A stretch of DNA of 64,000 bases from Thermotogota bacterium ADurb.Bin062. Its GTDB lineage: Bacteria > Thermotogota > Thermotogae > MWEM01. This document shows, one piece after another, positions 15,687 through 53,422 of the stretch (position 1 is its first letter; each line of letters starts with the position of its first letter). The notes under the pieces were generated by a model. It saw only the letters and a list, made by a program, of their open reading frames with translations, made no database searches and was not told the DNA's origin. Position numbers and translations under genes: made by a program. The stretch lies in the NCBI GenBank assembly GCA_002071085.1, contig MWEM01000004.1, positions 4,277-68,276 on the forward strand. The letters run 5' to 3'.

Positions 15687-18600
15687 GTGGCAAAAATCAA
15701 GTTCGCGGAGACTTGGTGGGGAGAGAGCTGGATCAGGGCCCTCGAAGAAATCGACGTGGATACGAATCGGCTGCCAAGGGGCCGCACCTATGCGAGAAAC
15801 GGGTCGGTTCTAGAAATTAAACGAACGAGAACGGGGACGATCCAAGCGAGGGTGCAGGGGCGTCGACCCGCCCCCTATCGTATACGTATCGCTTTAACGG
15901 AATGGTCGGAAGAGCAAAACGCCGCCGTCCTCGATCTAATACAAAACAGCCCCGCGCTCTCCTCCCAGCTTTTGATCGGTCAGATGCCCGAAAGTCTCGA
16001 GGCGGAGTTGGAGAAGCTTGGTGCCCGGATCTTTCCCTCTTCTTGGCGCGAAATGACGGCCTCTTGCAGTTGCCCCGACTGGGCGAATCCCTGTAAGCAC
16101 CTCGCCGCCGTCTATTACCTGCTGGCCGTCGAAATAGACAAAGACCCCTTCTTGCTCTTCGAAATGCGTGGGCTGAAAAAGAAACGGATCTTAGAAACCG
16201 CGCGGCTTACCGATCAGACCTTGAAAAGCGCGGGGTGGGTTTTCGACGTATCTCAAACTCCTGTGACCGATACATACGAAGCTCCGACCCCCACGACGGA
16301 GGAAATCGAAAGCTATATCGTGCAACCCTATCCCATCGATAAGGCGTTGGGAGTTTTAGAAAAAAATCCCCGGTTTGACGATGGCCCCCTCATCCTGCAG
16401 CTTCTGCCCACGACTTACCGGAAGATTAGAGATTATTGGAACGGAGAAGCGTTCATCGAACCCGAAGAGCCCCTTGCTCATTCGTCTTCGATAACGATAG
16501 AGCATCGCGAAGAGGGACCCGTGTTTTTGGTAGATGAGCTTTACAAAAAAGAGGTTTCTGAGCTCACAGTCGCAGATTTTTTGTTTCGGATGGAAGGGGT
16601 CAGCCTCTCGCCGCTTGCAGAAGATCACGCTACGATGCGTTGGGTGAAAGACACTCTCTCCCTCGCCCGAAGACTCATCGCGTTAAACAGCTGGGTTCCC
16701 GTTCTCTACTCGGTAGGACAAGGCGAGGACTTCGGGATCCGCTACGCCCCCGTCTACTCCCAACCGACTCTTCGCCAGAAGAAAGTGGCGTTGAACGCTT
16801 CGGTTCCCACCGGACTTATTCACGACGCCAAAAACCGCCCTCTGAAGAGAGAACAGAGCGTGGACTATCTCTTGTCCGTCTTTTTGACACAGATGGTGCA
16901 AGAGCCTTTAGGCGGTGTGCTGCCTTACTCGTCGATAGAAATGGCGCGCGTCTTCTTCCTTGGGGAGGTGTATAAGGCGGATCATTTTCAACGGCAACAG
17001 ACGAAAACGGCTGTGCAAAACTGGCTGACCCCGTTACACCTTTCCGACTCGGAGCACAATCTCGTCCTGGACATCCAGGTAACGAAAAAAACCCAGTTTT
17101 CGTTGACGGTCTCCGTGAAGCGCAAGCGCGACCTGTTTATCGACGCCGTACCGATGCAAAACTTCCTGAAAACCGCCGCGAACGGGGGCGAAAAAGAAGG
17201 GGCGCTCAAGCAGCTCGCCTGCCTTTCCGAATGGATTCCTCCCCTAAAGCGCTCTTTCGAAGAACGAACGATCCCTATCACCGTCGATGAGCTCATCCAG
17301 TTACTCAGCCAAGCGCGAGACTTCCTCGGTTTTTTCGGAGCGGAACTCGTCGTGCCGAAAGAGTTTAAGGACTTAACGCGTCCACGGGTCTTCGCGAGCG
17401 CAAGAATGAAAAGCGAACGAACGAAAGGCGTTTTAAACTTCGAAAACCTCCTCCAATTCGAATGGCGGGTCCAGTTCGGAGAAGACAACCTGTCTATAGA
17501 GGAGTTTGCGGCATTGATGAAGGGTGCGGAGCGGATCGTACTTTTCAAAGACCAGTATTGCTTGGTAGACCCTATCGAAGCGAAGAGGATGGTTGAGAAA
17601 TATATGACTTCGCCCATCATCAGTGGGCCGGAGGGGCTGCGCGCCGTATTCGCCCAGGAGCTCGACGGATACCCGCTACGCTACGGAGAGGACGTCGAAC
17701 GGCTGTTGAAGGGTTTGCGAAAAGAGCGGCGGTGCGAAGCACCGGGTACCCTCAATGGCCAATTGCGACCGTATCAGTTGAAAGGGTACCAATGGATGTT
17801 GTCGAACCTGCACAACGGGTTCAACATATGCTTGGCGGACGATATGGGTCTTGGTAAAACGATACAGGTGATCGCGGTGTTGCTCAAACTGCGCGAAAAT
17901 AAAGAGTTGACGCGCCCCGCCTTGGTCATTTGCCCTGCTTCCGTAACGCGTAACTGGCGAAAAGAGATAGAGACCTTCGCGCCGGACCTGAAGTGCGAGC
18001 TGTATGGCGGGTCGAATCGCGAGATATCAGCAGGGAAAGACGTTTGGATAACGACGTACGGTATGGTCCGATCCGAGGTAGAACGCTTGAAGAGTTTTGA
18101 GTGGAGCGTCGTAATCGTCGATGAAGCGCAGAATATCAAGAACCCCGATGCCGACCAATCTAAAGCTATCGCCCAGCTCAACGGGCAATATAAGATCGCG
18201 ATGAGCGGGACTCCAGTAGAAAACCGCGTGGCGGAACTATGGAGTCTGTTTAACTTCATTATGCCGGGATACTTAGGTCCCAGGAAAAAATTCCGAGAAG
18301 AATTCGCGATCCCCATCGAACGCCTGAACGACCCGGTTAAGACCAAGACGCTGAAACAGGCAGTCGAACCGTTTTTACTGAGAAGGTTAAAATCAGACAA
18401 GAACATCATCAAAGACCTTCCGGAAAAAGTCGTTCGGGAGGTCTACGTCACGCTCAAACCCGAACAAGCTGCTTTGTACGGCACCGTCTTAGAAGCCGCG
18501 GTAGGCGAGATAGAAAGCGCCCAAGGCATCAAGCGGAAAGGAAAGGTATTTTGGCTTCTCACCGCGCTCAAACAAATCTGCAACCACCCCGTGTCCTATA

Positions 18601-19157
18601 CCAAGAGCGGGACTCCCGTCGCCGAGCACTCCGGAAAGAGCGAGAAAGCCTTTGAATTGCTGAAAGAAGTCATCAAAAGCGGTGAAAAGGCGTTACTCTT
18701 CACCCAATACCGCGAGATGGGCGCCTTATTGGCTGCGATGACACCCGAAAAGCTAGGAATCGACCCGCTCTTTTTCCACGGCGGGCTCACCCCTAAAGAG
18801 CGAGAAAACCTCATCCTCGACTTTCAGCAGCAACCCTATCATCCATTAATGATCATTACACTGAAGGCGGGTGGCACGGGCTTAAACCTGACCGCCGCGA
18901 CCACCGTTATCCATTACGACCTATGGTGGAACCCGGCCGTCGAAAACCAGGCGACGGACAGGAGCTACCGAATCGGTCAAAAAAAAAGCGTCACCGTCCA
19001 TCGGTTACTGACCGAGAACACCTTTGAAGAACGCGTGAACGAGCTCTTACAAAAAAAGAAAGAGCTCTCCGACGCCATCGTCGGCGCTGGCGAGCATTGG
19101 ATCACGGAGATGAGCAACGAGGAAATCCGAAGCCTTTTTGAAATGAAAACAACCTAA
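15687..19157 (+). CDS. SNF2-family helicase with N-terminal SWIM zinc finger
   Basis: GTG start with RBS GAGGTGG. SWIM CxC...CxH (TASCSCPDWANPCKHLAAVYYLL). SNF2_N (LRPYQLKGYQWMLSNLHNGFNICLADDMGLGKTIQ; DEAQNIKN). Helicase_C (GGTGLNLTAATTVIHYDLWWNPAVENQATDRSYRIGQ). Confidence 0.85.
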   Translation: MAKIKFAETWWGESWIRALEEIDVDTNRLPRGRTYARNGSVLEIKRTRTGTIQARVQGRRPAPYRIRIALTEWSEEQNAAVLDLIQNSPALSSQLLIGQMPESLEAELEKLGARIFPSSWREMTASCSCPDWANPCKHLAAVYYLLAVEIDKDPFLLFEMRGLKKKRILETARLTDQTLKSAGWVFDVSQTPVTDTYEAPTPTTEEIESYIVQPYPIDKALGVLEKNPRFDDGPLILQLLPTTYRKIRDYWNGEAFIEPEEPLAHSSSITIEHREEGPVFLVDELYKKEVSELTVADFLFRMEGVSLSPLAEDHATMRWVKDTLSLARRLIALNSWVPVLYSVGQGEDFGIRYAPVYSQPTLRQKKVALNASVPTGLIHDAKNRPLKREQSVDYLLSVFLTQMVQEPLGGVLPYSSIEMARVFFLGEVYKADHFQRQQTKTAVQNWLTPLHLSDSEHNLVLDIQVTKKTQFSLTVSVKRKRDLFIDAVPMQNFLKTAANGGEKEGALKQLACLSEWIPPLKRSFEERTIPITVDELIQLLSQARDFLGFFGAELVVPKEFKDLTRPRVFASARMKSERTKGVLNFENLLQFEWRVQFGEDNLSIEEFAALMKGAERIVLFKDQYCLVDPIEAKRMVEKYMTSPIISGPEGLRAVFAQELDGYPLRYGEDVERLLKGLRKERRCEAPGTLNGQLRPYQLKGYQWMLSNLHNGFNICLADDMGLGKTIQVIAVLLKLRENKELTRPALVICPASVTRNWRKEIETFAPDLKCELYGGSNREISAGKDVWITTYGMVRSEVERLKSFEWSVVIVDEAQNIKNPDADQSKAIAQLNGQYKIAMSGTPVENRVAELWSLFNFIMPGYLGPRKKFREEFAIPIERLNDPVKTKTLKQAVEPFLLRRLKSDKNIIKDLPEKVVREVYVTLKPEQAALYGTVLEAAVGEIESAQGIKRKGKVFWLLTALKQICNHPVSYTKSGTPVAEHSGKSEKAFELLKEVIKSGEKALLFTQYREMGALLAAMTPEKLGIDPLFFHGGLTPKERENLILDFQQQPYHPLMIITLKAGGTGLNLTAATTVIHYDLWWNPAVENQATDRSYRIGQKKSVTVHRLLTENTFEERVNELLQKKKELSDAIVGAGEHWITEMSNEEIRSLFEMKTT

Positions 19158-21849: not shown

Positions 21850-21864
21850 GTTGGTGGCGTGACT

Positions 21865-24210
21865 ATGTATTCCTTACGGAAATTGGAATTCGACAAAGTG
21901 TTGGCCATGATCGCCGACCTGACGTTTTCCAGTTATGGAAAAGACGCGGTCCTTTCTCTCCAACCGATCGAGCATCCGCAGTTAGAATTGTCGAAGGTAT
22001 CTCAATTGATCGATCTGTTTCGAGCATACGGAGAACCGCCTGTGGGAGGAATCTCCGATATCCGGAGGGAGTGGGCGAAGGTTCTCGTCGGGAAAATTCT
22101 GGAACCCGGAGAACTCAAACGCATTGCCGTCAATTTCGATTCCGTCGCTAGACTGAAACGTTTCCTCGATGAAAAGTCGCACGAATACACCTTCCTCACC
22201 CCTTTCATAAGCCGACTCCACACGCTGGAAACGTTCGTCAAGTTCGCTTTTCTCGCAATCGAGGATGACGAGTCGATTTCGAACCGAGCCTCTCCGAGGT
22301 TGAATCAAATCCGTGTGGACTTAAGGCGTGCTATGCGCGACGTTCGGGGGCTTTTGGACAAGCTGATGACCGGCGTGTTGAAAGAAGTGGTCCAGGACAC
22401 CGACCTTCTCACGAGAGACGGTCGTTACGTCATACCGATCAAAGCCTCGAACCGCCATCAGGTCGCTGGGATCGTGCATTCATCCTCGGGAAGCGGCGCC
22501 ACTTACTATATGGAACCCGAAGCCCTGGTTCCTATGAACGACGCCGTCCGAAACCTGCAATCTCAGGAGCGCGAGGAGATCAATCGGATTCTCAGAGAAA
22601 TGTGCCAGATGCTCTTTCAGAGCGCGCGAGAGATCGCAGAAACGATCGACGCGTTGGTGGAATGGGACTCCTTATGGGCGCGGGCGCGGTTCGCGATCGA
22701 ACAAGACGGGACGATTCCGGAAATCTCTCCGGATGGCTCCTTTTCCTTGAGAGAAGCGAAGCATCCCCTGATTGGAAAAGCTTGCGTGCCACTCTCGCTT
22801 TCTCTATCCGACGAATTGCAGGGAATCGTGATCACGGGTCCGAATACGGGGGGGAAGACCGTCTCGCTCAAGACAGTAGGACTCTGCCATCTTATGGGTT
22901 TATCCGGAATTCCGGTTTGCGCTGCGATGGGCACGCGACTCGGGCGTTTTGCTCACGTTTTGGTGGACATCGGAGACGAACAGTCGATCGAGCAGAGTCT
23001 GAGCACCTTTTCCTCCCATATGAAGAATATCATCTCGATCAGTGAATACGCCGGCCCCGACGCATTGATCCTTTTGGACGAACTCGGCGCGGGTACCGAT
23101 CCCGTCGAGGGTTCTGCGATTGCGCTGGGGATCCTCGATGTCTTTCTGGAACGCGGGGCCAAAGTGCTGGTGAGCTCCCATATGACCCCGCTCAAATTGT
23201 ACGCCTATCAGAGGAAAGAACTCGAAAACGCGTCGGTGATCTTTGACATAGACGATCTCAGACCCACCTTCCAATTGGTGGTGGGGTTGGCGGGCAGCTC
23301 CAATGCCTTGATCATCTCCGAGCGTTTGGGATTGAACCCAACCGTCGTCGATCGGGCGCGTAGCTTTTTAGATCGGGATGTCCACCGAATCGACGAAGTT
23401 TTGAACCTCCTTCACCGTCAAAAAATAGAGATGGAGGAGCAAAACAGCCGGGTTCGTCATCTCCGGGAGACTCTGGAAAGGCAGCAGCAATCTTTGGAAA
23501 AACAGCTCGAGGAGATTAAACAGAAGAAATACGGCGCCTTTCTCAAAGAGATAGAAGCGATGGAGGAAGAGTTGCGCCAAATCAGGCGGTACACCCAGAC
23601 GAAGGTGGCCGAATTCAGGAAAGAAAAACCGCCGGCCGGCGCGGATATTGAGTCTTTCAACCGCGAGGTACAAGGGGATATCACCCAACAGCTAAAAGAT
23701 CTTAAAAAGAACTGGGAGCGGTCGTTCAAACAAGAGAGTCGAGAGGCGGAGATCGATAGTCTGAAGCCGGGGGACAGCATTCTGCTGAAAGACAGCAAGC
23801 TAGTTTTACGGGTTGTCGAGGTCAAAGGATCGACGCTTCTAGTTGAAAAAGACGGGAAAAAGCTGGAAATCCCGAAGGGCTTTGTCGGTCAAAAGACCGA
23901 ACCTCCGGCTTTACAGCCCGGCAAGGAATGGATTCACGAAAGCGCAAGCGCATTCCGCGAAGACTTCGTCGGAGACCGGCTCGATATTCGCGGGAAGACG
24001 GTGGAAGAAGGGATCGACGAGGTAGAGGCGTTCATCTCATTTTTGTTGATGAAAAACCGAAAGAGCGGCTGTGTGATTCACGGCAAAGGGACGGGGAAGT
24101 TGGCGGACGGTTTGTGGCAAAGGTTCGCCAAAGATCGGAGAATACAGTCTTATCGAATAGGAAAGCCCGAAGAGGGCGGAACGGGAGTCACGATTATTAC
24201 CTTATCTTAA
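21865..24210 (+). CDS. mutS2: Endonuclease MutS2 (with C-terminal Smr domain)
   Basis: Walker A ITGPNTGGKTVSLKTVGL, DELGAGTDP. C-terminal Smr (LDIRGKTVEEGIDEVEAFI...HGKGTG). The ORF-track start at 21859 (GTG) is 2 codons upstream of the ATG. Confidence 0.9.
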   Translation: MYSLRKLEFDKVLAMIADLTFSSYGKDAVLSLQPIEHPQLELSKVSQLIDLFRAYGEPPVGGISDIRREWAKVLVGKILEPGELKRIAVNFDSVARLKRFLDEKSHEYTFLTPFISRLHTLETFVKFAFLAIEDDESISNRASPRLNQIRVDLRRAMRDVRGLLDKLMTGVLKEVVQDTDLLTRDGRYVIPIKASNRHQVAGIVHSSSGSGATYYMEPEALVPMNDAVRNLQSQEREEINRILREMCQMLFQSAREIAETIDALVEWDSLWARARFAIEQDGTIPEISPDGSFSLREAKHPLIGKACVPLSLSLSDELQGIVITGPNTGGKTVSLKTVGLCHLMGLSGIPVCAAMGTRLGRFAHVLVDIGDEQSIEQSLSTFSSHMKNIISISEYAGPDALILLDELGAGTDPVEGSAIALGILDVFLERGAKVLVSSHMTPLKLYAYQRKELENASVIFDIDDLRPTFQLVVGLAGSSNALIISERLGLNPTVVDRARSFLDRDVHRIDEVLNLLHRQKIEMEEQNSRVRHLRETLERQQQSLEKQLEEIKQKKYGAFLKEIEAMEEELRQIRRYTQTKVAEFRKEKPPAGADIESFNREVQGDITQQLKDLKKNWERSFKQESREAEIDSLKPGDSILLKDSKLVLRVVEVKGSTLLVEKDGKKLEIPKGFVGQKTEPPALQPGKEWIHESASAFREDFVGDRLDIRGKTVEEGIDEVEAFISFLLMKNRKSGCVIHGKGTGKLADGLWQRFAKDRRIQSYRIGKPEEGGTGVTIITLS

Positions 24211-42076: not shown

Positions 42077-42106
42077 GCATAATTCGTCATACATCAAATT
42101 TGAATT

Positions 42107-42150
42107 GACCCGGGTGGAGGCAACCGCGCGTTGCTTCTCCCGGGTTTTTT
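42107..42150 (+). terminator. Hairpin plus T-run, candidate intrinsic terminator/attenuator
   Basis: CCCGGG-TGGAGGCAACCGCGCGTTGCTTCT-CCCGGG-TTTTTT, with an inner GCAAC-CGCGC-GTTGC hairpin. Confidence 0.4.
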
Positions 42151-42164
42151 GCGAGGAGGTTCGC

Positions 42165-44006
42165 TTGAAGGGTCGATTATTTCTGTGCTTTCTCGCGCTG
42201 TCCGCGCTCTGTTTCGCCGTCCGCCCTCTCTCTATAGAAGAGGCGCGCGCTCTGGTCCCGCAGATCGAGGTCGACACCTTTTCGATCACGTGCTACGGAA
42301 CCCGGTACGCCGTCGAAAAAGAATGGCAAGGGGCCCCTCGGATTCATTTCCTTTGGGATTCACAGACAGGGTACGAAAACCTCGTTGAACACGTTTTTGA
42401 AGAGGCGGGCTACCTGAAGACACCTGCCGGAGAGACGTTTCGCGGTAAGATCCTATCAATAGGGGAAGACTTCATCTACTGGGAATTCTCTTTCCGGGGG
42501 AAATTGGTTACCAACAGAGACGCGGTCGTTCGTAAAGACGAGAGACTTCCGGATTCCATTTGGCGTTTCTGCGCCCTTCACTATGGATTGTCGAAACCGG
42601 ATGAGACCGGCGAAAACAAGTCATTCTCTTATCTCGTCCTCCTGAAGAATCGGCAGCCTTACGAACCGGCGGATCCCCAGGCAAACCAGACAAGCGTCTT
42701 GCTTCTAGAAGGCCAAGGGTTCTCTATATGGAAGTTTTCCGATACGCACGTCCGATTGAAAACCCTATCGACTCAGAAAGCGAGCGAGCGGCCTGTGTGG
42801 CAGTTCGCGATTGCGCCCGTGCCCGTGCAAGCGATCGATCTCGAAGACGCCTTCTTTCCCTTCACGCTGGAAACCCGTCCGCCCGGTCTTTTGGCCCGTC
42901 TGGACGGCGTAGAGTATGAAACCCCGTTCTCCGCGCAACTACCGCAGGGTGTGCATCGCTTGGAGATCGCCGGTGAGGAACGCTTTTTCTACCTATCTGA
43001 ACCGACCACGCAGTTTCTGGAAATCGAGCAGCCTCAGGGCACGTTGTCTATCGAACTCTCGTTAACCGCAAGAATCGCGCTCTACCGCGATCGGGAGACT
43101 GTCTTTATTACTCAAAGCGCGACGCGTGTCACCCAAACCTTGCCCTTCGGTTTCTACACGCTGAAGGTACAACGAGAAGCCTACGAGCCGATCGAAGAAA
43201 CCGTGGAAGTCCTGCCTGGGAAGCGTGTGACTAAATCTTATTCGCTGACCCCGATTCCGGGCGCCGTATTCCTGAAGCGATCGCTGGATCAACCCTGCGA
43301 ACGAATCTTCGTCAACGAGAGGTGGGCCATTCTCGCGGACTCCACACGCTCGGTGTTTATGCCACTGCCAACGAACGACGCCACTGCTTTTTATTTGGAA
43401 GAGCGAGTCGCCGGCGCAGAGGGGCCGTTTTCCTTTTCGCTCCGGACCGTTTATTTGGGCGAGGCGCCCATTTTTCTAAACCCTTTTCCTATCGTCACCG
43501 TCGTGCCCTTCGACAAGGAGCTTTGGATCTTCGACGCCTCGGGAACGCTGACCGTGGTGAACACACGGAATAACAAGACCCTGTGGCAACGGGCAGTCGG
43601 TTACATCCCCCATTGGACATACCGCTACGATCGGTGGTTGGCCCTCTTGGATATATACGGAAACTTCATCCTACTCGAGCCCCAACGGGGATACCACGAG
43701 GTTTTTCGTTATCGCTTCGGCGCCTTGAAGACGCTCGACCACGTGGTCGTTACTCCAAGCGCGCTTCTGCTCTACTTTTCGCCCGATGCGCTATTAACCT
43801 ATTCTTTCAACACGCGGGCGTATCATTACGAAGAAGGGGTATCCTACGAACCCGAGCGAATCCTTCTCTCTACCAACGGTTTTCAAAAAGGTCGAGATCT
43901 GTTCTATCGGTTCGAAGAGCCCCTACGGGCCTACGACATCTCCGACGGGCACATCGCCGTCCTGTACGATCGATATTACGCCGTCCTTTTCGCGCCGGGG
44001 GAATAG
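42165..44006 (+). CDS. Secreted protein with PEGA-like beta-sandwich repeats and a probable beta-propeller-like C-terminal region
   Basis: TTG 42165 after GCGAGGAGGT. Signal peptide LKGRLFLCFLALSALCFA. PEGA-like segments (RPPGLLARLDGVEYETPFSAQLPQGVHRLEI; YTLKVQREAYEPIEETVEVLPGKRVTKSYSL). Confidence 0.45.
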   Translation: MKGRLFLCFLALSALCFAVRPLSIEEARALVPQIEVDTFSITCYGTRYAVEKEWQGAPRIHFLWDSQTGYENLVEHVFEEAGYLKTPAGETFRGKILSIGEDFIYWEFSFRGKLVTNRDAVVRKDERLPDSIWRFCALHYGLSKPDETGENKSFSYLVLLKNRQPYEPADPQANQTSVLLLEGQGFSIWKFSDTHVRLKTLSTQKASERPVWQFAIAPVPVQAIDLEDAFFPFTLETRPPGLLARLDGVEYETPFSAQLPQGVHRLEIAGEERFFYLSEPTTQFLEIEQPQGTLSIELSLTARIALYRDRETVFITQSATRVTQTLPFGFYTLKVQREAYEPIEETVEVLPGKRVTKSYSLTPIPGAVFLKRSLDQPCERIFVNERWAILADSTRSVFMPLPTNDATAFYLEERVAGAEGPFSFSLRTVYLGEAPIFLNPFPIVTVVPFDKELWIFDASGTLTVVNTRNNKTLWQRAVGYIPHWTYRYDRWLALLDIYGNFILLEPQRGYHEVFRYRFGALKTLDHVVVTPSALLLYFSPDALLTYSFNTRAYHYEEGVSYEPERILLSTNGFQKGRDLFYRFEEPLRAYDISDGHIAVLYDRYYAVLFAPGE

Positions 44007-44008
44007 GG

Positions 44009-44575
44009 GTGCCGGGGTATCGAACGCACAGCCTTTCGGCCTTCTTGACCTTTCCCCTCGTTACGCTCCTCTACAAATGTTTGGCGCCGTTGACGAAGGG
44101 TACGCCCCTGTCGTGGGATCAGATTTCGACGGGGTTCGTCTTGTACCTGCTCTCTTCGCAGGCACCGGACATCGATCATAAACAAGCCTACTCGAACCGC
44201 CTGTTCTTTTTCTTCTTATGGATGGTATTGACGCTGGCAGTTTTCCGCGCCCTGTTTACGCACGGGTATTACCTCCTACCCCCGGTCTTCGATCCAGTGA
44301 TCGAAGAAGCGCTGTTCGTTCTATCGCTGGCGGGGGGAGGGCTCGTTTCTTTCGTGTGCTTCAAATTGCTTCCGGTTCACAGAGGGCCGATCCACACCTT
44401 CTTGTTCGGTTTGGTTTACGCCTTGGCCCTCGGGGCCTTATACTGGTATTTGTTTGAAAACCTATCGACGGAGAAAGCGGCGTTGTCGCGGTTGTTTTTC
44501 ATCTTTATGTGCGCCCTGCTCGGGTTTTTAAACCATTTGCTCTTGGATAGCCTTTCCGGCAGGCTGAAAAGGTAG
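44009..44575 (+). CDS. Membrane-bound metal-dependent hydrolase (YdjM/DUF457-like)
   Basis: GTG 44009 directly after the upstream stop. 4-5 TM segments. Conserved His/Asp positions (QAPDIDHKQ...HRGPIHT...NHLLLDS). The ORF-track N-terminal extension from 43583 overlaps the PEGA gene in another frame. Confidence 0.45.
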   Translation: MPGYRTHSLSAFLTFPLVTLLYKCLAPLTKGTPLSWDQISTGFVLYLLSSQAPDIDHKQAYSNRLFFFFLWMVLTLAVFRALFTHGYYLLPPVFDPVIEEALFVLSLAGGGLVSFVCFKLLPVHRGPIHTFLFGLVYALALGALYWYLFENLSTEKAALSRLFFIFMCALLGFLNHLLLDSLSGRLKR

Positions 44576-44580
44576 GACCC

Positions 44581-47500
44581 TTAAGAGAACAGGTAAGTTA
44601 ACTCCTCTTTTCCGAAAGACCCGCCATCGCGTTCACTACCGCTCAAGACCCCGTCAGCCACACTCTGCTTGCGTTTCTGTAGCTCCAGCACCTTTTCTTC
44701 GATCGAGTCTTTCGCGATCAGTCGATAGACGAACACCGGTTTGTTCTGTCCGATTCGATGGGTGCGATCGATGGCTTGAGCCTCCGAGGCCGGATTCCAC
44801 CACGGGTCAAAGATGATGACGTAGTCCGCTTCCGTGAGGTTGAGGCCGACACCGCCGACCTTCAAAGTCATCAAGAATATCCGAGTTTCGGGGTTTTCTT
44901 TGAAAGCGTCGATGATCTCTTGGCGGTTTTGCGTTTTCCCGGTCATCGTCAGGATTTGATCTTTGTAGTCGGAGAGGTCCTCCTGAATGATCTCCAGCAT
45001 CTTCGAAAATTGTGAAAAAACTAAAACTTTGTGATTTTCGGCGCAAATACTGTCGACCAACTCCCTTAAAGCTTCCAACTTACCGGACAGCCCTTTGCCA
45101 GACAATTCCTCTTTCGTCAAGCGGGGATGGCAACAGATCTGACGCAAGCGCAGTAAAAGGGTCAATATTAGAAAGCGGCTTCGCTGAAAACCGGCTTCGT
45201 CGCGCATTATCGAAAGCGCCTCGGACTGTGCCGCTTTGAAGTAGGTATCGTAAATATCGGATTGAGATTTCGTCATGTCGACATACAGGTTTTCAATGGT
45301 TTTTTCAGGCAGTTCGGCTAAAACGTCTTCTTTCTTTCTCCTGAGGATCAAAGGGGCGATCTTCTTTCCTAGCTCTTCGAAGTTCTCGTTGTAGGTGGAA
45401 AAAAAGAGTTTGTCAGCACCAAGAAATCCGGGCATTAAAAAGTCGAAAATGGACTTCACGTCTGACAACCCATTTTCTATCGGCGTGCCGGAAAGGGCGA
45501 GCCGGTTCTCCGCTTGCACTTTCGTCAATTCTTTGAAAGTCCGCGTGTTTTTATTCTTTATATTTTGAGCCTCGTCGAGGATGACGTAATTGAAGGTTTT
45601 GGGGGTAAATAGGCGGATGTCGTTGCGCAACGTGGCGTAGGTCGTCAAGATCAAATCAGAAGTGCTCTTCGAGATATCTTGGTTTTGCCGACCGTACCCA
45701 TGATAGATCAGGGTCGTGAGATCCGGCGAGAAACGGTTGGTCTCGGCCTCCCAGTTTCTCAGCAACGACTTCGGCGCGACGACGAGCGCGGATAGCCGTC
45801 CGTATCGACGTTTAAAATCGTGTAGCATCGCGAGCGCCTGAACGGTTTTACCCAACCCCATATCATCGGCCAGTATTCCCGAAAGACCGTATTCCTCCAA
45901 AAACCTCAGCCAGTTGTACCCCGCAATTTGATACGGGCGTAGTGACGCGCCGAAATCCGATGGGACCGGATACTCCTGTATTTGAGTGAACTTATCGATC
46001 GCCGAAAGAAACCGTTCGGTTCTCTCGTCGAAAGAGGGTGTCGTCACCTCCCTAAGTGTTTGTAAGGTCTCGAAGTCTGCCTTCGGGATACGCAACCCGT
46101 CTTTCAGCTGGCTTAACCGTGATCTCAGTGTTTCGAGTTTCCCCGCCTCGTGAGGATCTACGGAGAAGTATTCCCCGTTGATCTGAAGATATTGAGAGGG
46201 GTTGGCCAAAAGACGATCCAGATCCTCAGCGGCGATGGGTTCGCCGTTCAGTTCCCCGCTTAACGCCAGATCAAACCAGTCGGTACCATATGAGAAAAAC
46301 GTTTTGACGATCGGCTTGACCCGCCCGCGAGAAAAGAGCCGAGTGTCGCACTCCAACACCACTTCTTTTTCGTACTTTGGGAACTCCTCGTTGACTAGGC
46401 GCAAAACGCTCTCCAAGTGTAAGTCGTAAAGTAGGCTCTCTGCGTCTAGACAGGTCTCGTGGCTGAGCATATTCCGAATAGTTTGAATGTGTTGAGCCTC
46501 GAACTCCAAATCTCTCTTAAAGATTTGGCCGGTGGTTTCGGAAATAATGATACTTTCGGGTTGTTCGGCCGACAAACGGCGATCTCCGTACTTGAAGAAC
46601 AGCTGAAATCGATAGTTCCAATGATAACTTTGGATCTGCCATAGAGCCTTCGGCTTTTCGCTGGTATAGGCCATTCCATTTCCGAACAGCTGGGGCGCGA
46701 CGTTGACCTGCAAAGAGAGTAGGGGCAAGAACAGTAGTCGCTGCAGAGATCCCTTATTTTCTTCTTTCTCTGCTCCCCAATCGTAGTCTTTCAGCAGTTC
46801 CTGGAGACGAAAAGTCGTTTCTGCGTCCAATGAGGTGACGACCGGAAAAATCTTGTTGGTGATGATCGCCAATTTCAAACCCAGCTTTCCATAATAAGCG
46901 AAAGCGGGCAAAAAATAGTCTTTTGTTTTCGTAGCTTTCAATGGATACTCGATCCTGTTTTCTTCGTTGATCAACCGGAATTCCAACAGTTGCTGATCCG
47001 GCGCTTTGATCCCCGAGCGTTTCGGCTTCAGATGAAGCGTAAGCGTGGGACCGAAAACAGCCGGTTCATTCAGATAGTTAATGTAAACGCAATCATCATC
47101 CCGAAAAGCCTCTACGAACCTTTGAAAATCTGTGATTTCTAAAGAAAATTCATTATGATAGGAATCAGTCGAGGGAGGAACATAACTCATACAGGACAAA
47201 ACGCGCGCAAAGAACGGATCGTCCCTCTTGTACAACCGTTGATAACTCACGAGTTTTTGACCGGTAGCGAGGTATTTCCCTTTTGCGTTTCTTTTCCGCC
47301 GGGCGACTCTAGCAAGCAGCTCCCTGTTACACGGGTTCAGGAGCACGACAAATTTCTCCTCTTCGGACTTTGCTCCCTTTTCGCTGGAATTCCGTTGTTC
47401 CGTATGAAAGAAAGAGAGGAGATGAGTGAGTTGCTCTTTGTTTCCCAGGTATTTACGATAACCGGATTCGAACATTTGAATCCTCTTATGCTCCTCATAG

Positions 47501-47835
47501 AGCTGTTCGACTTTGCTCGATTGTCTCCCAGCCTCCTCCAAGAGGAAAAGGAGATGAGGGCAGAGCCTTTCTATCCGCGTGTCGTACCCGCAGCTACAAT
47601 GCAAACTTATGGCGCGGTCTTTGAACGAGACGATCGCGATCACGTATATTTCTCGTTCCGCAAAACCGCCCGTGATGACCACTGCGTCCTTTTCAGTGGC
47701 GAATTCGAAATCCAACACTTTCCAGAGAGATTTTGGCACTTTTCTTGTTAAATGGTTCTTTTCTCGTATTTCCTTCAAAATAACGGAATACTCTTCAGAA
47801 AATCGGATCATAGTGAGTTCAACGGGTAAAATCAT
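44581..47835 (-). CDS. SNF2-family helicase with N-terminal SWIM zinc finger (paralog of 15687-19157)
   Basis: SWIM HCSCGYDTRIERLCPHLLFLL. SNF2_N LRPYQIAGYNWLRFLEEYGLSGILADDMGLGKTVQ, DEAQNIKN. Helicase_C GGVGLNLTEADYVIIFDPWWNPASEAQAIDRTHRIGQ. Confidence 0.85.
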   Translation of the reverse strand: MILPVELTMIRFSEEYSVILKEIREKNHLTRKVPKSLWKVLDFEFATEKDAVVITGGFAEREIYVIAIVSFKDRAISLHCSCGYDTRIERLCPHLLFLLEEAGRQSSKVEQLYEEHKRIQMFESGYRKYLGNKEQLTHLLSFFHTEQRNSSEKGAKSEEEKFVVLLNPCNRELLARVARRKRNAKGKYLATGQKLVSYQRLYKRDDPFFARVLSCMSYVPPSTDSYHNEFSLEITDFQRFVEAFRDDDCVYINYLNEPAVFGPTLTLHLKPKRSGIKAPDQQLLEFRLINEENRIEYPLKATKTKDYFLPAFAYYGKLGLKLAIITNKIFPVVTSLDAETTFRLQELLKDYDWGAEKEENKGSLQRLLFLPLLSLQVNVAPQLFGNGMAYTSEKPKALWQIQSYHWNYRFQLFFKYGDRRLSAEQPESIIISETTGQIFKRDLEFEAQHIQTIRNMLSHETCLDAESLLYDLHLESVLRLVNEEFPKYEKEVVLECDTRLFSRGRVKPIVKTFFSYGTDWFDLALSGELNGEPIAAEDLDRLLANPSQYLQINGEYFSVDPHEAGKLETLRSRLSQLKDGLRIPKADFETLQTLREVTTPSFDERTERFLSAIDKFTQIQEYPVPSDFGASLRPYQIAGYNWLRFLEEYGLSGILADDMGLGKTVQALAMLHDFKRRYGRLSALVVAPKSLLRNWEAETNRFSPDLTTLIYHGYGRQNQDISKSTSDLILTTYATLRNDIRLFTPKTFNYVILDEAQNIKNKNTRTFKELTKVQAENRLALSGTPIENGLSDVKSIFDFLMPGFLGADKLFFSTYNENFEELGKKIAPLILRRKKEDVLAELPEKTIENLYVDMTKSQSDIYDTYFKAAQSEALSIMRDEAGFQRSRFLILTLLLRLRQICCHPRLTKEELSGKGLSGKLEALRELVDSICAENHKVLVFSQFSKMLEIIQEDLSDYKDQILTMTGKTQNRQEIIDAFKENPETRIFLMTLKVGGVGLNLTEADYVIIFDPWWNPASEAQAIDRTHRIGQNKPVFVYRLIAKDSIEEKVLELQKRKQSVADGVLSGSERDGGSFGKEELTYLFS

Positions 47836-47847
47836 CGCAATAGTCCT

Positions 47848-48108
47848 TTATCGTATCATTAAAAAAATGAATTGGGCTAGGCTGATACCCAACAAAATAT
47901 AAAACATAATCTCCAACGCGTTGAAGTAACTCTTCTGCTTTTTTAAGCTTTCTTCCAGCTCCCGATAGTTGTCATTCAAAAAACATTGAATCCGGTCTAT
48001 CTTCCGCTCTATCCGCAAGAGGTCGGATTCTTCCGCCGCTTGCCCTTTTCCTTCGGATTCCGAAGAGGCGGGAACCCGATTCCAAAAACCGGCATCGCTA
48101 TCCCTCAA
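47848..48108 (-). CDS. Small protein with coiled-coil segment and C-terminal TM helix (86 aa)
   Basis: Overlaps the gatB stop by 11 nt and ends 13 nt before the SNF2 start. C-terminus IMFYILLGISLAQFIFLMI. Confidence 0.4.
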   Translation of the reverse strand: MRDSDAGFWNRVPASSESEGKGQAAEESDLLRIERKIDRIQCFLNDNYRELEESLKKQKSYFNALEIMFYILLGISLAQFIFLMIR

Positions 48109-49552
48109 TGTTATTCCCCTCCAACAGCGCTTTAATCGTCTCTTGAACCAGGGAGGTATCGCACTGTCCTTTCGTTTCTTTCATGACCAGACCAATAAAG
48201 TATTTCAACAATCCCGTCTTTCCAAACCGATACGCTTCCGCTTGCTCCGGGTGTTCTTCCACCACTTTTTTGGAAACTTCGATCACGTAGGCGCTGTCGT
48301 TGATTCGCGAAATCCCTTTTTCAGAGAGGAGCTGCTCTAGGGAGATATCGTTCTCCAATAGATCCGGGATCAGTGTTTTCGCGATGTGGGTGGTCGTTTT
48401 GCCCGTGGCAATCCATTCGATGATCTCCGCCAGACGTGCCACGGTCAAGGTTGTCCGATCGATCGTAAGCGCCCTCTCTTTGAGGGTTTTCTGTATCTCC
48501 CCGAGCAGCCAATTCTTGACCGCTTTCACGGGTAGTCCTTGTCCCACCGCTGCGACGAAAAAGGTTTCCAGTTCAGGCTCGTCGAGGAAAGTCTTCGCTT
48601 CGGCCATCGTCAAGCCGTATTGCTCCATCAGTCGATCTTGCTTTTCCATAGGAAGTTCCGGTATCGTTGTGCGGATGCGGTCGATCCAGGCGCGCTCTAG
48701 AACGATATCGGGTAAGTCGGGTTCGGGAAAATGACGGTAGGTGTTCTCTTCTCCTTTACTTCGAAGCGATACGGTCGAACGGCTTCCTTGGTCCCATCCG
48801 CGCGTTTCCGAGACCGTCTTCTCTCCGGATAAGAGCGCCGCCTTGAGCCGTTCGAACTCGTATTCCAGAGCTTTTTCAACGAACCTGAAGGAGTTGACGT
48901 TTTTTATTTCCACACGAGCCGTTACCAAGCCACGGTCCGTGTCTCGGACCGAGATATTTGCGTCGCAGCGTAGCGCGCCCTTTTCCATATCTCCGCTACA
49001 AATCCCGAGGGTTCGAAAGGTATTCCGCAAGGTCTCCATAAAGGCGTGGGCCTCTTTAGGCGTATCCAGATCAGGTTCTGTGACGACCTCAAGCAAAGCG
49101 ATACCGCAACGGTTGTAGTCAATAAACGCACATTCCGGTCGGTCGGCGGGGCTGTGGAGAAGCTTTCCCGTATCCTCTTCTATATGAACTCTGCGTATGC
49201 GTACCTTTTTCTTGCGTCCGTCGGCGTGGATCAACAGACTTCCGTTTTCTGCGATCGGGCGGAAGTATTGGGTGATCTGGAAGCCTTTGACCAGATCGGG
49301 ATAAAAGTAATTCTTTCGATCGAAAGAGCTCCTTTCATTGATGTGGCAATTTAACGCGAGCGCCGCCTTCACCGCGAACTCCACGACCGTGGCATTCAAT
49401 TTTGGTAAAGTTCCGGGCTGACCGGTGCAACCGTCGCATATGTGGGTGTTCGGAGGCGCATCGAAGGACTCGGACGAACAGCTGCAGAACGCTTTCGTCT
49501 TCGTCAGCAATTGCGCGTGGATTTCCAAGCCGATCTGAGGTTTTATAGCCAT
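48098..49552 (-). CDS. gatB: Asp-tRNA(Asn)/Glu-tRNA(Gln) amidotransferase subunit B
   Basis: Start [15 protein letters not shown] at 49552. The ORF-track extension to 49681 overlaps gatA. Confidence 0.9.
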   Translation of the reverse strand: MAIKPQIGLEIHAQLLTKTKAFCSCSSESFDAPPNTHICDGCTGQPGTLPKLNATVVEFAVKAALALNCHINERSSFDRKNYFYPDLVKGFQITQYFRPIAENGSLLIHADGRKKKVRIRRVHIEEDTGKLLHSPADRPECAFIDYNRCGIALLEVVTEPDLDTPKEAHAFMETLRNTFRTLGICSGDMEKGALRCDANISVRDTDRGLVTARVEIKNVNSFRFVEKALEYEFERLKAALLSGEKTVSETRGWDQGSRSTVSLRSKGEENTYRHFPEPDLPDIVLERAWIDRIRTTIPELPMEKQDRLMEQYGLTMAEAKTFLDEPELETFFVAAVGQGLPVKAVKNWLLGEIQKTLKERALTIDRTTLTVARLAEIIEWIATGKTTTHIAKTLIPDLLENDISLEQLLSEKGISRINDSAYVIEVSKKVVEEHPEQAEAYRFGKTGLLKYFIGLVMKETKGQCDTSLVQETIKALLEGNNIEG

Positions 49553-50994
49553 AAGCGCTCCTCCTGAAATGGGAAGGGATAGTGATCGTCCTCGAAAAAC
49601 CCTGCGCTCTTCTCGTAGGCGCGCGCGATATTGAACAGCATCTCGTCGGCGAAAGGCTTGCATTGCAAATGTAAGCCGCACGGCATTCCGTTAGCGAATC
49701 CCATCGGGATCGACAGGGCGGGCAGTCCAACGAGGTTGGCTAAGACCGTGTTTTTATCCGAAAGGTAAAAAGCTAACGGATCGGTGTTCTCCGTTATCCG
49801 AAAGGGTGAGAAAAGCGATGTGGGCGAGAGGAGCACATCGTAATCTTGAAATATCTGGTGGACTCTCTGTGAGATGAGCCGTCGAACCTTCATCGCTTTT
49901 TGATAGTGCGAGTCATATTGAGCCTCTCCGAGGTAGAAGGCGCCCAATAGCATCCTTCGCTTCACCTCTTCACCGAAGCCATACTGCCGGGATTCGGCCA
50001 TCATATCTGTCAAGCTTTCTTCCGGTATCCTGAAGCCGTAACGTACACCGTCGAATCTGGCGAGATTGGAGGAAGCTTCCGAGGGCACGAGGATGTGGTA
50101 GGTGGCGATCGCGTACCTCTCCTCAGGAAAGTCGATCTCTTCCACAACGCATCGATTTTGTTTAAATATCTCGACTGCCTCCCAAAACGCACGCCGCACG
50201 TGCGGGTCGATCGTTTCGGGAACTGACTGCCTTACCACGGCGCAACGTTTCCCCGCAATCGAGTTTTCGATACCTTTCAATAAATCCATCGGACGGTCGA
50301 CGGTGGTAGCGTCCTTTTCGTCTTTTCCGATGAGGATATTGCCGATACACGCGGCATCTCGCACCGAACGGCAGAGAGGTCCGATTTGGTCGAGAGAAGA
50401 GGCTAAAGAGACGAGCCCGTAACGCGAAACCAACCCGTAACTCGGTTTGTATCCGACAATCCCACAGTGGGCGGCGGGCAGGCGGTTTGAACCGCCGGTG
50501 TCGGATCCGAGCGCGAAAGGAACACACCCGGCCGCTACCGCCGCCGCGGAGCCCCCGCTGCTCCCACCCGGAATACGATAGTAGTCCCAAGGGTTTTTCG
50601 TTGTAAAAAAAGCGGAGTATTTCGTTGAAGAACCCATAGCGAACTCATCCATATTTGTTTTCCCAAAGAAGACCGCACCGCTGGCTTTCAAGCGCGCGAT
50701 GGCCGTCGCATCGTAACCGGCTTTGTAGTTCCATAGGGCGTAGGACCCACAAGTGGTCTGAAAGCCCTCCACCATAATATTGTCTTTTACCGCGAAAGGC
50801 AAAGGCAAACTGTCCAGGGCATCCGGAATACTAATCTCCGAAAGTTTCGGCATCCGAATAAAGGCCAGTATCCTCGAGTCGGCGGCCCACGCGTGCTTAT
50901 AGAAAGCTTCTAAAATATCTCTCGGGCTCCAGCTCTTATCCCGAATCCCGCGAACCAACGACTCGACGGTGTTTTTCCAGATCTCCAACGCCAC
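49543..50994 (-). CDS. gatA: Glu-tRNA(Gln) amidotransferase subunit A (amidase signature family)
   Basis: GTG 50994 after GGAGGT. Amidase signature [14 protein letters not shown]. Confidence 0.9.
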
Positions 50995-51059
50995 ACCTCC
51001 GTACAGAGTATGAAAGGTACGGTACCTCCGAAGATTATAACACAAATCGCGAGCGGACT

Positions 51060-51640
51060 TTTGTGAGGTGTGGGTATAATATCGGGGTGCGCCAAAATGG
51101 GAACGCTGAACTTTAGTTCGGCAGGTTCAAAGAAAAGATGGTTTCGCACAGAGTACGCAGAGAGCACAGAGGAAACATAAACCTGGGTGTTGACTCTCCT
51201 AAACACCTCTCTTCTTTGTGACCTCCGTGGTCTCCGTGGGAGATTTTTTAGATATGCCAACTTAAAAGTTGGCGTTCCCAACCCACAAAGTATCGCGCCG
51301 TCGCATAGAGAAAAAACGCTTACGCCGCGATGGGTCCGGAAAAAAACGTTTCGCGCCATCGAAAGAAGAAGAGGCGCTCACGCCGCGATGTCTGTGTGGG
51401 TCATCGCGGGGTAAGTGGTTTTTACGACCCCGCGATCCCGCTTTTGTTTTTTTCTAAAGTTCCGCGATGGGTCCGGAAAAAAACGTTTCGCGCCGTCGCA
51501 AGAAGAAGAGGCGCTTACGCTGCGATGCCTGTTTGGGTCATCGCGGGTAAAAAGGCAGTCCAGAAAAACTCGCCGCGCGAAAGCGTGGAGCCGACCGGCG
51601 GCATACCTTCTGTTAATCCCAGAAGGGAGTTGATTTAGTT
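51060..51640. repeat. Composite intergenic repeat cluster including a 137-bp tandem duplication
   Basis: P module GTGTGGGTATAATATCGGGGTG (51068). Q hairpin GCCAACTTAAAAGTTGGC (51256-51273). R(rc)+S(rc) unit (S hairpin 51401-51437). Unit CCGCGATGGGTCCGGAAAAAAACGTTTCGCGCC.TCG.AAGAAGAAGAGGCGCT.ACGC.GCGATG.CTGT.TGGGTCATCGCGGG repeated at 51325 and 51462. Confidence 0.8.
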
Positions 51641-51748
51641 CAAGAACTGAATTGTTCTTACAAATAATTTACCAAACGGTCAAATAATTCCTTCGCGGAA
51701 CGTGATAGAATAAGAAGCGGTACGACGCTTCGGATTGGAGGGATACGG

Positions 51749-52336
51749 TTGTCCAAGAGAGACACCAAACGTGACATATTACAAGCGGCAAAAGCGGTTT
51801 TCGCAAGCAAAGGCTACGAAGCTTCAACCTTAGAGGACATCGCGGAAAAAGCCGGCGTGAGAAAAGCGCTGATTTTTTACTACTACCCTTCAAAAGAATC
51901 GTTGTTTTTAGAAGCCTGGAACGAATCGATCGACGAGCTTGAGAATACGCTCTTTAGAGAACTGGCGGACGAGAGCGTCTATATCCGGAAGTTGAAAAAA
52001 CTCTTCCGCGGTTACATCGATTTTGTGATGAGCCGTCGAGAAGTGATGAAACTGATAGAGATCGATCGGGTTCGAATTATGGACGGGCCGCAGGACGGAG
52101 ACGAGTGGGGAAGGTTTCGGCTCAGGTACAACCGTTTCTTGCAAAAAATCGAAGAACTGATCGAGGAAGGGAAAGAAAAAAAGGCCCTGCCCTCCGACAT
52201 ATCGACAAAAGCGACGGCCAAACTCCTCGCGCAAATGATGGGTATGGGCGCTTTGGAAGAGAACATCACGCTGGAACGCATCATACGGATCATCTTGTCC
52301 GGCATGGCTTTGGAACCGGAAAGAATCCTGCTTTAA
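51749..52336 (+). CDS. TetR/AcrR family transcriptional regulator
   Basis: N-terminal HTH ILQAAKAVFASKGYEASTLEDIAEKAGVRKALIFYYYPSKESLF. Confidence 0.8.
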   Translation: MSKRDTKRDILQAAKAVFASKGYEASTLEDIAEKAGVRKALIFYYYPSKESLFLEAWNESIDELENTLFRELADESVYIRKLKKLFRGYIDFVMSRREVMKLIEIDRVRIMDGPQDGDEWGRFRLRYNRFLQKIEELIEEGKEKKALPSDISTKATAKLLAQMMGMGALEENITLERIIRIILSGMALEPERILL

Positions 52337-52345
52337 CCCGGCTCT

Positions 52346-53422
52346 ATGGACTTCTATCTCAACGTGACCGTAGCCGGTTTGGAAACGACCCGGCAAATCT
52401 GCTCCGATTACGGTTACTGGTTCCGAAGAGGAGACGAAACCTCGTTAACGCTTTTTTTCACGGATCGCGCCCTCGTTTCAGAGGTCCGGCGGGTCGTCGA
52501 CGACCTCAAAGGACCAGGATCGGCTCCCGTTCACCTTATCGCGGATCCGGTTCCCTTCCACGAACTCCACCGGTTCTACCGAAAAAAAGGCTTGCTGAAC
52601 GAGTGGATTCCCTATCGCCCAGGCGACCTTTTCAGGATCCATCGCCTCCTCGAACCGAACGCGGGTAATCAGAGCTACGAAACTCAACCGGTCTCTATAC
52701 AATTCGACGTGCGCTATGACCAAACCGTTCCCGAAAAGCGCCGTGTCTATCGGAGAGAACAGATCGCCGCCATTCTCGACGCGATCGATCACCTTCACCC
52801 GACGTCGCTGATCGACTGGGGTTGCGGATGCGGCGCGAATTACTCTTTTCTGAAGGATAAATTGGCGCAAGAGGGGATCCGTTATCAAGGCCTCGACACC
52901 AGTCGTTTTCTTATTTCGAAAGCGAAGGACTTGTATGAAACTCCGGAATCTGATCCCCGTGTTCGATTTGATCTGGGTGACGCGAGGAGACTTCCTTACC
53001 CCGACCACGCCTTCGATTTAGGGTTTTCCGAGAGTCTTTTACCGTTGGTCCCGAACCCCCTGGCGGCTCTTACCGAGATGGCTCGTACGACGCTGTTCGG
53101 CTTTTTTTCCTCGCTCTATACGATCGCTTCGCACCAACCCGGATTGGTTTATTTACAAAAGGAGCGGGCCTATGCCTTGGACGTGGGGGCGACTTGGAAA
53201 TACCGCAAGGGTGTTTCCGAACAAGTCTTCTATCTTCCCAAAACCGCCGATGTCAGGGCTTTCGCACGAAAGGTCCCGCATATCGTGACGGTCGAAAACA
53301 AACGGCATCAGTTCTTCGATGCCTTGGGCATCCGAACGGTGAGCGTCTTTTTCTATCCAAAAAGGTGGTTCGACCAAAGGCGCGCCCGATTCACGCTGTG
53401 GAATTATCAGCCTTTGATGTGA
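52346..53422 (+). CDS. Class I SAM-dependent methyltransferase (358 aa)
   Basis: Motif I IDWGCGCGANYSFL, acidic motif II LDTS, motif III FDLGFSESLL. Confidence 0.6.
   Translation: MDFYLNVTVAGLETTRQICSDYGYWFRRGDETSLTLFFTDRALVSEVRRVVDDLKGPGSAPVHLIADPVPFHELHRFYRKKGLLNEWIPYRPGDLFRIHRLLEPNAGNQSYETQPVSIQFDVRYDQTVPEKRRVYRREQIAAILDAIDHLHPTSLIDWGCGCGANYSFLKDKLAQEGIRYQGLDTSRFLISKAKDLYETPESDPRVRFDLGDARRLPYPDHAFDLGFSESLLPLVPNPLAALTEMARTTLFGFFSSLYTIASHQPGLVYLQKERAYALDVGATWKYRKGVSEQVFYLPKTADVRAFARKVPHIVTVENKRHQFFDALGIRTVSVFFYPKRWFDQRRARFTLWNYQPLM

Follow-up and report, generated by a model that had tools for sequence, protein, structure and literature searches.

The locus considered here raises the question of why a gene for a SNF2-family ATPase should lie directly behind genes for tRNA amidation. 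It is found in a stretch of 64,000 nucleotides from the Thermotogota bacterium ADurb.Bin062 (GenBank assembly GCA_002071085.1, contig MWEM01000004.1, positions 4,277 to 68,276), the whole of which is referred to below as the window. Within it gatA and gatB, which encode amidotransferase subunits, are followed on the minus strand by a small open reading frame (ORF) and then by the ATPase gene, here designated SNF2a; a second gene of the same superfamily, SNF2b, is located elsewhere in the window. A preliminary description, made from the sequence alone, had presented the four minus-strand genes as an apparently contiguous transcription unit in which the helicase is tied to gatA-gatB through the small protein, and had treated SNF2b as a paralogue of SNF2a. 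The explanation favoured here, which is regarded as probable though by no means secure, is that the locus has two layers: gatA, gatB and the small gene form a conserved unit, and SNF2a is a clade-specific addition to it, likely expressed by read-through and with no direct tie to tRNA amidation.

A small membrane protein encoded with gatB

The four ORFs, read from the sequence in the order gatA, gatB, small ORF and SNF2a, are closely packed (Table 1). The gatA/gatB overlap is 10 nucleotides (nt) long and the gatB/small-ORF overlap 11 nt; GGAGGGG lies 9 nt 5′ of the TTG start of the small ORF, and a spacer of 12 nt, with AGGA straight after the small-ORF stop codon, leads to SNF2a. The coordinates originally given for all four genes are borne out, as is the overlap of the 86-residue frame with the gatB stop codon, and a single C-terminal transmembrane (TM) helix is indeed predicted in its product.

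A profile built from four clade sequences recovered a small-protein family of 24 clusters, all of them unannotated and all from Thermotogota metagenomes or metagenome-assembled genomes (MAGs), and a wider profile of 17 sequences found zero further members. In a tblastn survey the small gene lies directly 3′ of gatB, usually overlapping it, in every one of the 23 recovered loci that carry it, at GatB identities of 34% to 80%; the overlap ranges from 4 to 17 nt across lineages and is accompanied by a purine-rich Shine-Dalgarno sequence. Only the close clade among these loci has SNF2a downstream of the small gene. The proteins of this clade are 83–90 residues long and those of two distant subgroups 67–68. 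In the distant subgroups GatB is 38–48% identical to the window's, the gatB/small overlap is 4 or 17 nt and no SNF2 gene follows. None of the genes that flank the unit in the window is found on their contigs, which have Inhibitor_I42, M24 peptidase, EF-P and NusB genes upstream and a convergent SIR2 or EamA gene downstream. With a ratio of non-synonymous to synonymous substitution rates (dN/dS) of 0.05–0.14 and saturated synonymous sites, the small ORF is a real gene under strong purifying selection. It belongs with gatAB, and the conserved unit is gatA-gatB-small protein. The proposal that the small TM protein links the helicase to gatAB did not hold, since the small gene follows gatB equally where no SNF2 gene exists.

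The product is predicted to be tail-anchored, its last ~20 residues being strongly hydrophobic (mean Kyte-Doolittle value of 2.41 over residues 67–85, the C-terminal 19). AlphaFold models it as one continuous helix spanning residues 22–85, with a predicted local distance difference test (pLDDT) score of ~90, behind an N-terminus predicted to be disordered. Invariant positions comprise R32, I33, E34, K36, D38, Q41, N45, Y48, K57 and the segment E66-I-M-F-Y70. Proteins of the SNF2-linked clade possess an extra, poorly structured N-terminal extension of ~20 residues (M-x-D-N-D-x-x-F-W-N), which is missing in the 67–68-residue homologues from SNF2-less lineages in a comparison with P0088–P0105. 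No match to the small protein was obtained in Pfam, NCBIfam or PADLOC; Pfam scans at relaxed thresholds yielded nothing beyond sub-threshold matches of the 'coiled coil plus TM' type (e.g. synaptobrevin, emp24 and XhlA), and comparison with PDB sequences only chance coiled-coil matches. The family is undescribed, and is both the only part of the locus that merits follow-up and of more interest than the helicase.

In being small and encoded in a gat operon, the protein resembles the third amidotransferase subunits GatC and GatF. GatC, however, is a soluble protein of ~95 residues that encircles the interface of GatA and GatB, whereas the model of the small protein is a single long helix with a membrane anchor at its end. 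Its identification as GatC was rejected, there being no GatC Pfam match at E ≤ 10 and a C-terminal TM helix being predicted. Two approximate GatC probes gave no phmmer match among all ORFs of the window, which covers 64 kb of the genome, and of the retrieved loci. Yeast GatF illustrates that the third subunit of the amidotransferase can be lineage-specific (PMC4027206).

Distribution of the gatAB-SNF2 linkage

Amongst 5.8 billion proteins, only three clusters of full-length SNF2a homologues were found, at 63%, 62% and 49% identity. The order gatA-gatB-small gene-SNF2 occurs in five contigs of relatives, L001 (/L005), L002, L003, L016 and L017, whose SNF2 proteins are 49–63% identical to SNF2a; in four of these contigs the small gene and SNF2a are 12 nt apart, and in L003 41 nt. 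The flanks of the linked contigs are syntenic too, over ~20 kb, with a tRNA_edit gene, a methyltransferase gene and TetR upstream, and genes for YdjM, a PEGA protein, ABC and Opp transporters and PGK/TIM downstream. Because the whole neighbourhood is syntenic in the clade, the recurrence of the gatAB-SNF2 arrangement does not constitute independent evidence.

The closest SNF2a orthologue outside the clade, P0106 from a Thermotogaceae MAG (35% identity over residues 36–1083), follows a 157-nt intergenic region and adjoins a divergent Nitro_FeMo-Co gene and feoAB. Of the four others amongst the five proteins matched by the profile of the SNF2a N-terminal domain, P0107 was left out and none of the three with readable contexts is beside gatAB. 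P0109, P0005 and P0016, which include more distant relatives bearing PF08455, are unlinked to gatAB, and P0108 lies at a contig edge. Whether the linkage is found in other genomes, as the preliminary description asked, therefore has a divided answer: it recurs in five related contigs, but these form one narrow syntenic clade and the outgroup relatives of SNF2a are unlinked. The association looks like a clade-specific accident of gene order, and we infer that SNF2a is not functionally coupled to GatAB. Where genes lie together as in an operon, but do so repeatedly only in one syntenic clade, their proximity is no evidence that they are functionally coupled.

Domain architecture and subfamily of SNF2a

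SNF2a is a SNF2/SWI2 family ATPase. Both domains of its core exceed the Pfam thresholds (SNF2-rel_dom, PF00176, residues 635–906, E = 1.9e-63, 214.7 bits; Helicase_C, PF00271, residues 919–1029, 85.1 bits), and motifs I (DDMGLGKT), II (DEAQNIKN) and VI (QAIDRTHRIGQ) are intact, their columns being invariant in a 45-sequence family alignment. The closest PDB match by sequence is the Sulfolobus SWI2/SNF2 core, a translocase of double-stranded DNA (dsDNA), in its dsDNA-bound form (1z63, E = 2.5e-107, residues 624–1079), and no PDB structure matches the N-terminal half by sequence. An AlphaFold2 model built from 45 sequences has a mean pLDDT of 80. A Foldseek comparison of this model with PDB structures, which also covered the fold of the N-terminal domain, returned Mot1, INO80, ISWI, CSB and ZorD, Snf2-family ATPases on dsDNA or chromatin. 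By this kinship SNF2a is most likely an ATP-driven dsDNA translocase. Its exact sequence is already present in NCBI as HNW45940.1, 'DEAD/DEAH box helicase [Thermotogota bacterium]'.

In Pfam, nothing significant was found for residues 1–520 of SNF2a. SWIM (PF04434, gathering threshold 19.6 bits) does not match SNF2a even at E ≤ 10 and is weak in two of the four clade members (best E = 0.0015), whilst SNF2_assoc (PF08455, threshold 27 bits) matches neither SNF2a nor its three close relatives. The earlier designation of SNF2a as a SWIM protein nevertheless stands in part. The motif C80-x-C82-x9-C92-x-H94 is invariant in the four-member clade and at least 90% conserved or invariant across the 45 family members, and in the model beta strands (residues 41–80) are followed by a helix (93–104). 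The relative P0106 passes both Pfam SWIM (24.5 bits against 19.6) and PF08455 (34.1 bits), although Pfam SWIM makes no call in SNF2a itself. A profile of the N-terminal 620 residues retrieved only five proteins at E < 1e-10 from 1.84 billion representative proteins, with P0106 at E = 2.6e-50. The link to PF08455 is thus transitive only, as the profile matches P0106 and P0106 in turn matches PF08455. A weak DUF3670 match lies just before the core (residues 528–573). On these comparisons SNF2a is best classed as a very divergent member of the bacterial SWIM/SNF2_assoc/SNF2 (YwqA-like) group, on a branch seen so far only in Thermotogota MAGs.

A side observation concerns P0108, whose gene call is cut at the 5′ end. 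Its frame is open to the contig edge (L029 1–160 / L030 1–160) and encodes a SWIM motif, CGCEYFRNGNICKH, so that the 984-residue 'SNF2 without SWIM' architecture is an annotation artefact.

The closest known systems are the YwqA-like ATPases of Firmicutes (e.g. P0023 and P0037), which share with SNF2a an N-terminal CxCxnCxH motif, followed by an extended middle domain and by the SNF2 core at the C-terminus. Their cores are 42–46% identical to that of SNF2a, and the PF08455 middle domain of the group is detectable in the bridging relative P0106. SNF2a differs in that its N-terminal 520 residues have diverged so far that neither Pfam SWIM nor SNF2_assoc scores, and its N-domain has only a handful of homologues, all in Thermotogota. 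Bacillus subtilis YwqA itself presumably has the SWIM/SNF2_assoc/SNF2 architecture. For YwqA, an interaction with RNA polymerase as a Swi2/Snf2 translocase has been reported (PMC7385302, PMC12448304).

The best NCBIfam model for SNF2a is NF053675 ('pilus expression-regulating Snf2 family helicase'), the Streptococcus pneumoniae type 1 pilus Snf2 repressor. Its score of 448.8 bits (residues 588–1069) is far under the equivalog cut-off of 1100 bits and the match is confined to the helicase core. The pneumococcal Snf2-family protein is cited as a transcriptional repressor (Basset et al. 2017, via PMC8465756). A literature search found nothing directly on PF08455/SNF2_assoc or on Snf2 with pilus expression.

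Relationship between SNF2a and SNF2b

In Pfam, SNF2b comprises SWIM (residues 121–144, 26.7 bits), DUF3670 (PF12419, residues 529–638) and a SNF2 core scoring 236.9 and 73.4 bits. The BLASTP alignment with SNF2a is restricted to the C-terminal helicase half (34% identity, 191/569, E = 5e-87), and hhalign of the SNF2a N-domain profile against SNF2b residues 1–688 gave only a 39-column match with a probability of 5%. The notion that the two N-domains are recognisably the same is rejected, the ~520 N-terminal residues having no detectable similarity. Of the claim that the two proteins share one domain order at low sequence identity, the broad layout survives, loosely shared and with a core identity of 34%, but the N-terminal halves are unalignable.

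In a neighbour-joining tree of 33 helicase-core sequences, SNF2a groups with P0106–P0109 and then with PF08455-bearing proteins (42–52% identity), and SNF2b with DUF3670-bearing proteins from other phyla (46–52%). At 37.9% identity, the SNF2a and SNF2b cores are among the most distant pairs in the table underlying the tree, and each is nearer to proteins of other phyla than to the other. The same division is seen in NCBIfam, where the top model is NF053675 for SNF2a and NF058637 for SNF2b, neither match coming near the equivalog cut-off; on NF058637 SNF2a reaches 416.7 and SNF2b 603.3 bits, against a cut-off of 1200. The SCO1167/SCO6262-type DUF3670 helicases, the subfamily of SNF2b, share with SNF2a the superfamily and the broad layout of an N-terminal SWIM or SWIM-type motif and a C-terminal SNF2 core. 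They differ from it in that the SNF2a core is only 37–40% identical to theirs, versus 46–52% for SNF2b, and the N-terminal halves are unalignable.

The two genes of the window thus share a superfamily and have related cores, which leaves the proposed paralogy true in the broad sense, but alignment and core tree assign them to different subfamilies. These are anciently separated, coexisting here by chance and not by local duplication. Nothing in the gene neighbourhoods ties SNF2a to SNF2b, whose neighbours are housekeeping or mobile genes (GDPD, YhgA-like transposase, tyrosine recombinase, MutS2 and an EPSP-synthase-family enzyme). The region after SNF2b (19340–24210) encodes a YhgA-like (Transposase_31) PD-(D/E)XK protein with a DUF4351 tail, a XerC/D-type tyrosine recombinase and MutS2 (MutS_V and Smr), and forms a small mobile-looking patch amid housekeeping genes.

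Expression of the unit

Co-transcription is the default reading for four genes packed as tightly as these, and gatA, gatB, the small gene and SNF2a are probably co-transcribed by read-through from a gatA promoter. A consensus scan found no terminator-like hairpin at the gatA/gatB, gatB/small or small/SNF2a junctions, and no Rfam match to an RNA element or leader was obtained at E ≤ 0.1 in 43500–52500. The proposal of a contiguous minus-strand unit accordingly retains its grounds in tight packing, hairpin-free junctions and an order that recurs in five relatives, with the qualification that the SNF2 linkage is restricted to one clade.

An alternative scenario is that SNF2a is transcribed on its own from a promoter within the small gene or towards the 3′ end of gatB, its adjacency having no effect on expression. 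This is considered unlikely, although it survives better than the other rivals. In its support, the sole internal minus-strand promoter-like match near the junction, TTGACC-17-GATCAT (9/12), lies inside gatB at 48448–48420, the L003 spacer is 41 nt and not 12, and the outgroup orthologue P0106 has its own intergenic region upstream. However, the region contains 13 sigma-70-like matches where shuffled sequence would give 5.3, which leaves little weight to one match of 9/12, and no terminator is found from gatB to SNF2a. An island of synonymous-site conservation suggestive of an embedded promoter is likewise absent from the small ORF, with a weak one (4/7 codons) near the gatB end.

Weighing the explanations

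Under the two-layer explanation, the older layer would be gatA-gatB with a translationally coupled small protein, consisting of a disordered N-terminus, a ~43-residue helix and a C-terminal membrane anchor, that has accompanied gatB in several deeply diverged Thermotogota lineages. Later, in one narrow clade, a SNF2 gene of the SWIM/SNF2_assoc type would have come to sit directly behind this unit. SNF2a would then be expressed by read-through from the gatA promoter, and its N-terminal zinc-finger region may select or gate the target, as in the RNA-polymerase-associated YwqA and RapA (PMC7385302, PMC12448304), which together with the pneumococcal repressor are its closest relatives to have been studied.

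Several points weigh against this explanation. The 12-nt spacer, kept in four of five contigs despite saturated synonymous sites, might owe its retention to selection for coupled expression and not to drift, and an N-terminal extension of the small protein that is present only where SNF2a follows would fit a clade-specific interaction. SNF2a may have an internal promoter. As few genomes carry the family, the statement that the linkage is not conserved elsewhere rests on few independent lineages. In addition, the function of YwqA-type proteins is poorly defined, which makes the mechanistic analogy weak.

The spacer and the extension are also central to a second alternative, in which the locus is a functional module. 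The membrane-anchored small protein would recruit or regulate SNF2a, GatCAB or both, the helicase would be tethered to the membrane or tied to the machinery of translation, and selection would account for its position in the operon. Further support comes from the invariant polar helix residues (R32, E34, K36, D38, Q41, N45 and Y48), which suggest a binding surface, and from the precedent of ZorAB-ZorD, in which a membrane complex signals to a Snf2 protein (PMC11946911). Nevertheless, those residues are common to SNF2-less lineages and so cannot be a SNF2-binding surface. The small protein is as conserved and as closely coupled to gatB where SNF2 is absent, SNF2a orthologues stand alone in other Thermotogota, and whole-neighbourhood synteny explains the recurring arrangement. 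This model is judged improbable.

ZorD merits comparison on structural grounds also. Like SNF2a, it has an N-terminal domain of ~500 residues followed by a Snf2-related C-terminal domain, and 996 columns of the SNF2a model align with it (8qy7). The ZorD N-domain autoinhibits its C-terminal domain (PMC11946911), which offers a plausible model, by analogy, for how such N-domains may work. The differences are considerable: identity is 20%, the template modelling score is 0.35–0.42, and the SNF2a locus, set in a housekeeping context, lacks zorA, zorB and zorC. The final alternative, that SNF2a, SNF2b or both are anti-phage defence effectors of the Zorya ZorD, Dpd DpdE or DISARM DrmD kind, is rejected as very improbable: SNF2a gives matches to the PADLOC hidden Markov models of 457 bits for DpdE and 395 bits for ZorD, with similar matches for SNF2b, Foldseek aligns SNF2a with apo ZorD as above and a YhgA-like transposase and a tyrosine recombinase follow SNF2b, but the PADLOC matches are confined to the generic helicase core (residues ~586–1066), all the NCBIfam equivalog cut-offs are missed widely (ZorD 225.1 against 1500, DrmD 105 against 950 and DpdE 58 against 500), partner genes of ZorABC, Dpd or Drm type are absent amongst neighbours that comprise gatAB, YdjM, the PEGA protein, ABC/Opp transporters and PGK/TIM, and stable synteny distinguishes the locus from a variable island.

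Other features of the locus

The features of the unit and its surroundings are listed in Table 1.

Table 1. Position, strand and supporting evidence of the principal features, in window coordinates
Feature	Position	Strand	Evidence
gatA (glutamine amidotransferase subunit A), first gene of the unit; longest ORF, real start possibly up to ~60 nt further in	49543..51045	-	Pfam Amidase E 2.8e-127; TIGR00132 517.2 bits against cut-off 481.1
gatB, 484 aa from ATG	48098..49552	-	Pfam GatB_N and GatB_Yqey; NF004012 583 bits against cut-off 338
Small ORF, 86 aa, TTG start, predicted tail-anchored	47848..48108	-	Conservation, hydropathy, AlphaFold helix
Predicted C-terminal TM helix of small protein, residues ~66-85	47854..47913	-	Hydropathy, AlphaFold; preceded by invariant EIMFY (E66-Y70)
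SNF2a, 1084 aa, ATG start, last gene of the unit	44581..47835	-	Pfam SNF2-rel_dom and Helicase_C
SWIM-type CxCx9CxH motif of SNF2a (C80, C82, C92, H94)	47554..47598	-	Motif conservation
SNF2 ATPase core of SNF2a, residues ~625-1070	44626..45963	-	Motifs I, II and VI read from translation
SNF2b, 1156 aa, SWIM + DUF3670 + SNF2	15687..19157	+	Pfam
YdjM-family membrane protein gene, convergent, marks 3′ end of the unit	43583..44575	+	Pfam YdjM
Sigma-70-like promoter candidate upstream of gatA, TTCCCA-16-TATTAT	51076..51103	-	Consensus match only

The unit is bounded at its 3′ side by the convergent YdjM-family gene, whose stop codon is 5 nt from that of SNF2a and which is also present in L001–L003. 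In relatives the ends of these two genes (window 44575–44583) overlap by at least 4 nt (L001 10339–10342), and by 24 nt in L003. With the ends this close an intergenic terminator would not fit, and termination of each transcript must fall within the opposing gene. Beyond, the interval from the ABC-transporter genes to YdjM encodes, in all relatives, a conserved protein of ~610–630 residues with a faint PEGA match (window 42105–44006; L001–L003). An unannotated protein of ~506 residues lies 3′ of it in the operon, and both are uncharacterised.

At the 5′ end, an intergenic region of ~700 bp separates gatA from the divergent TetR gene. This region harbours an 86-nt direct repeat in two copies (51325–51410 and 51462–51547) that are 93% identical and have inverted ends, CCGCGATG...CATCGCGG, together with a third, partial copy at 51287–51332. 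A 23-nt palindromic element, GGAACGCCAACTTTTAAGTTGGC, is found at 51256–51278 and again at 20550–20572. In relatives the gatA-TetR spacer is much shorter, ~150–200 bp in L001, and the window repeats therefore look like insertions resembling miniature inverted-repeat transposable elements (MITEs) or repetitive extragenic palindromic (REP) sequences. ARAGORN places an 84-nt tRNA-Arg(CCT) within the gatA coding sequence (50473–50556, minus strand). This is most likely a false positive, Rfam having no tRNA there at E ≤ 0.1.

Implications

The biology of helicases gains little from this locus, as SNF2a is classed as a divergent member of a widespread and poorly understood bacterial Snf2 group. The small protein invites a more speculative proposal, to which only a slight probability is attached. 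The tail-anchored protein of 67–90 residues would be a new accessory amidotransferase subunit in part of the Thermotogota, either as a replacement for GatC or as a tether that holds GatAB, or the transamidosome, at the cytoplasmic membrane, and in the window's clade its N-terminal extension would engage the co-expressed SNF2 ATPase. To our knowledge, no other membrane-associated partner of GatCAB has been described, and the small protein would be the first, should it bind the amidotransferase. If it does so, this would suggest a spatial organisation of Asn- and Gln-tRNA synthesis in these bacteria.

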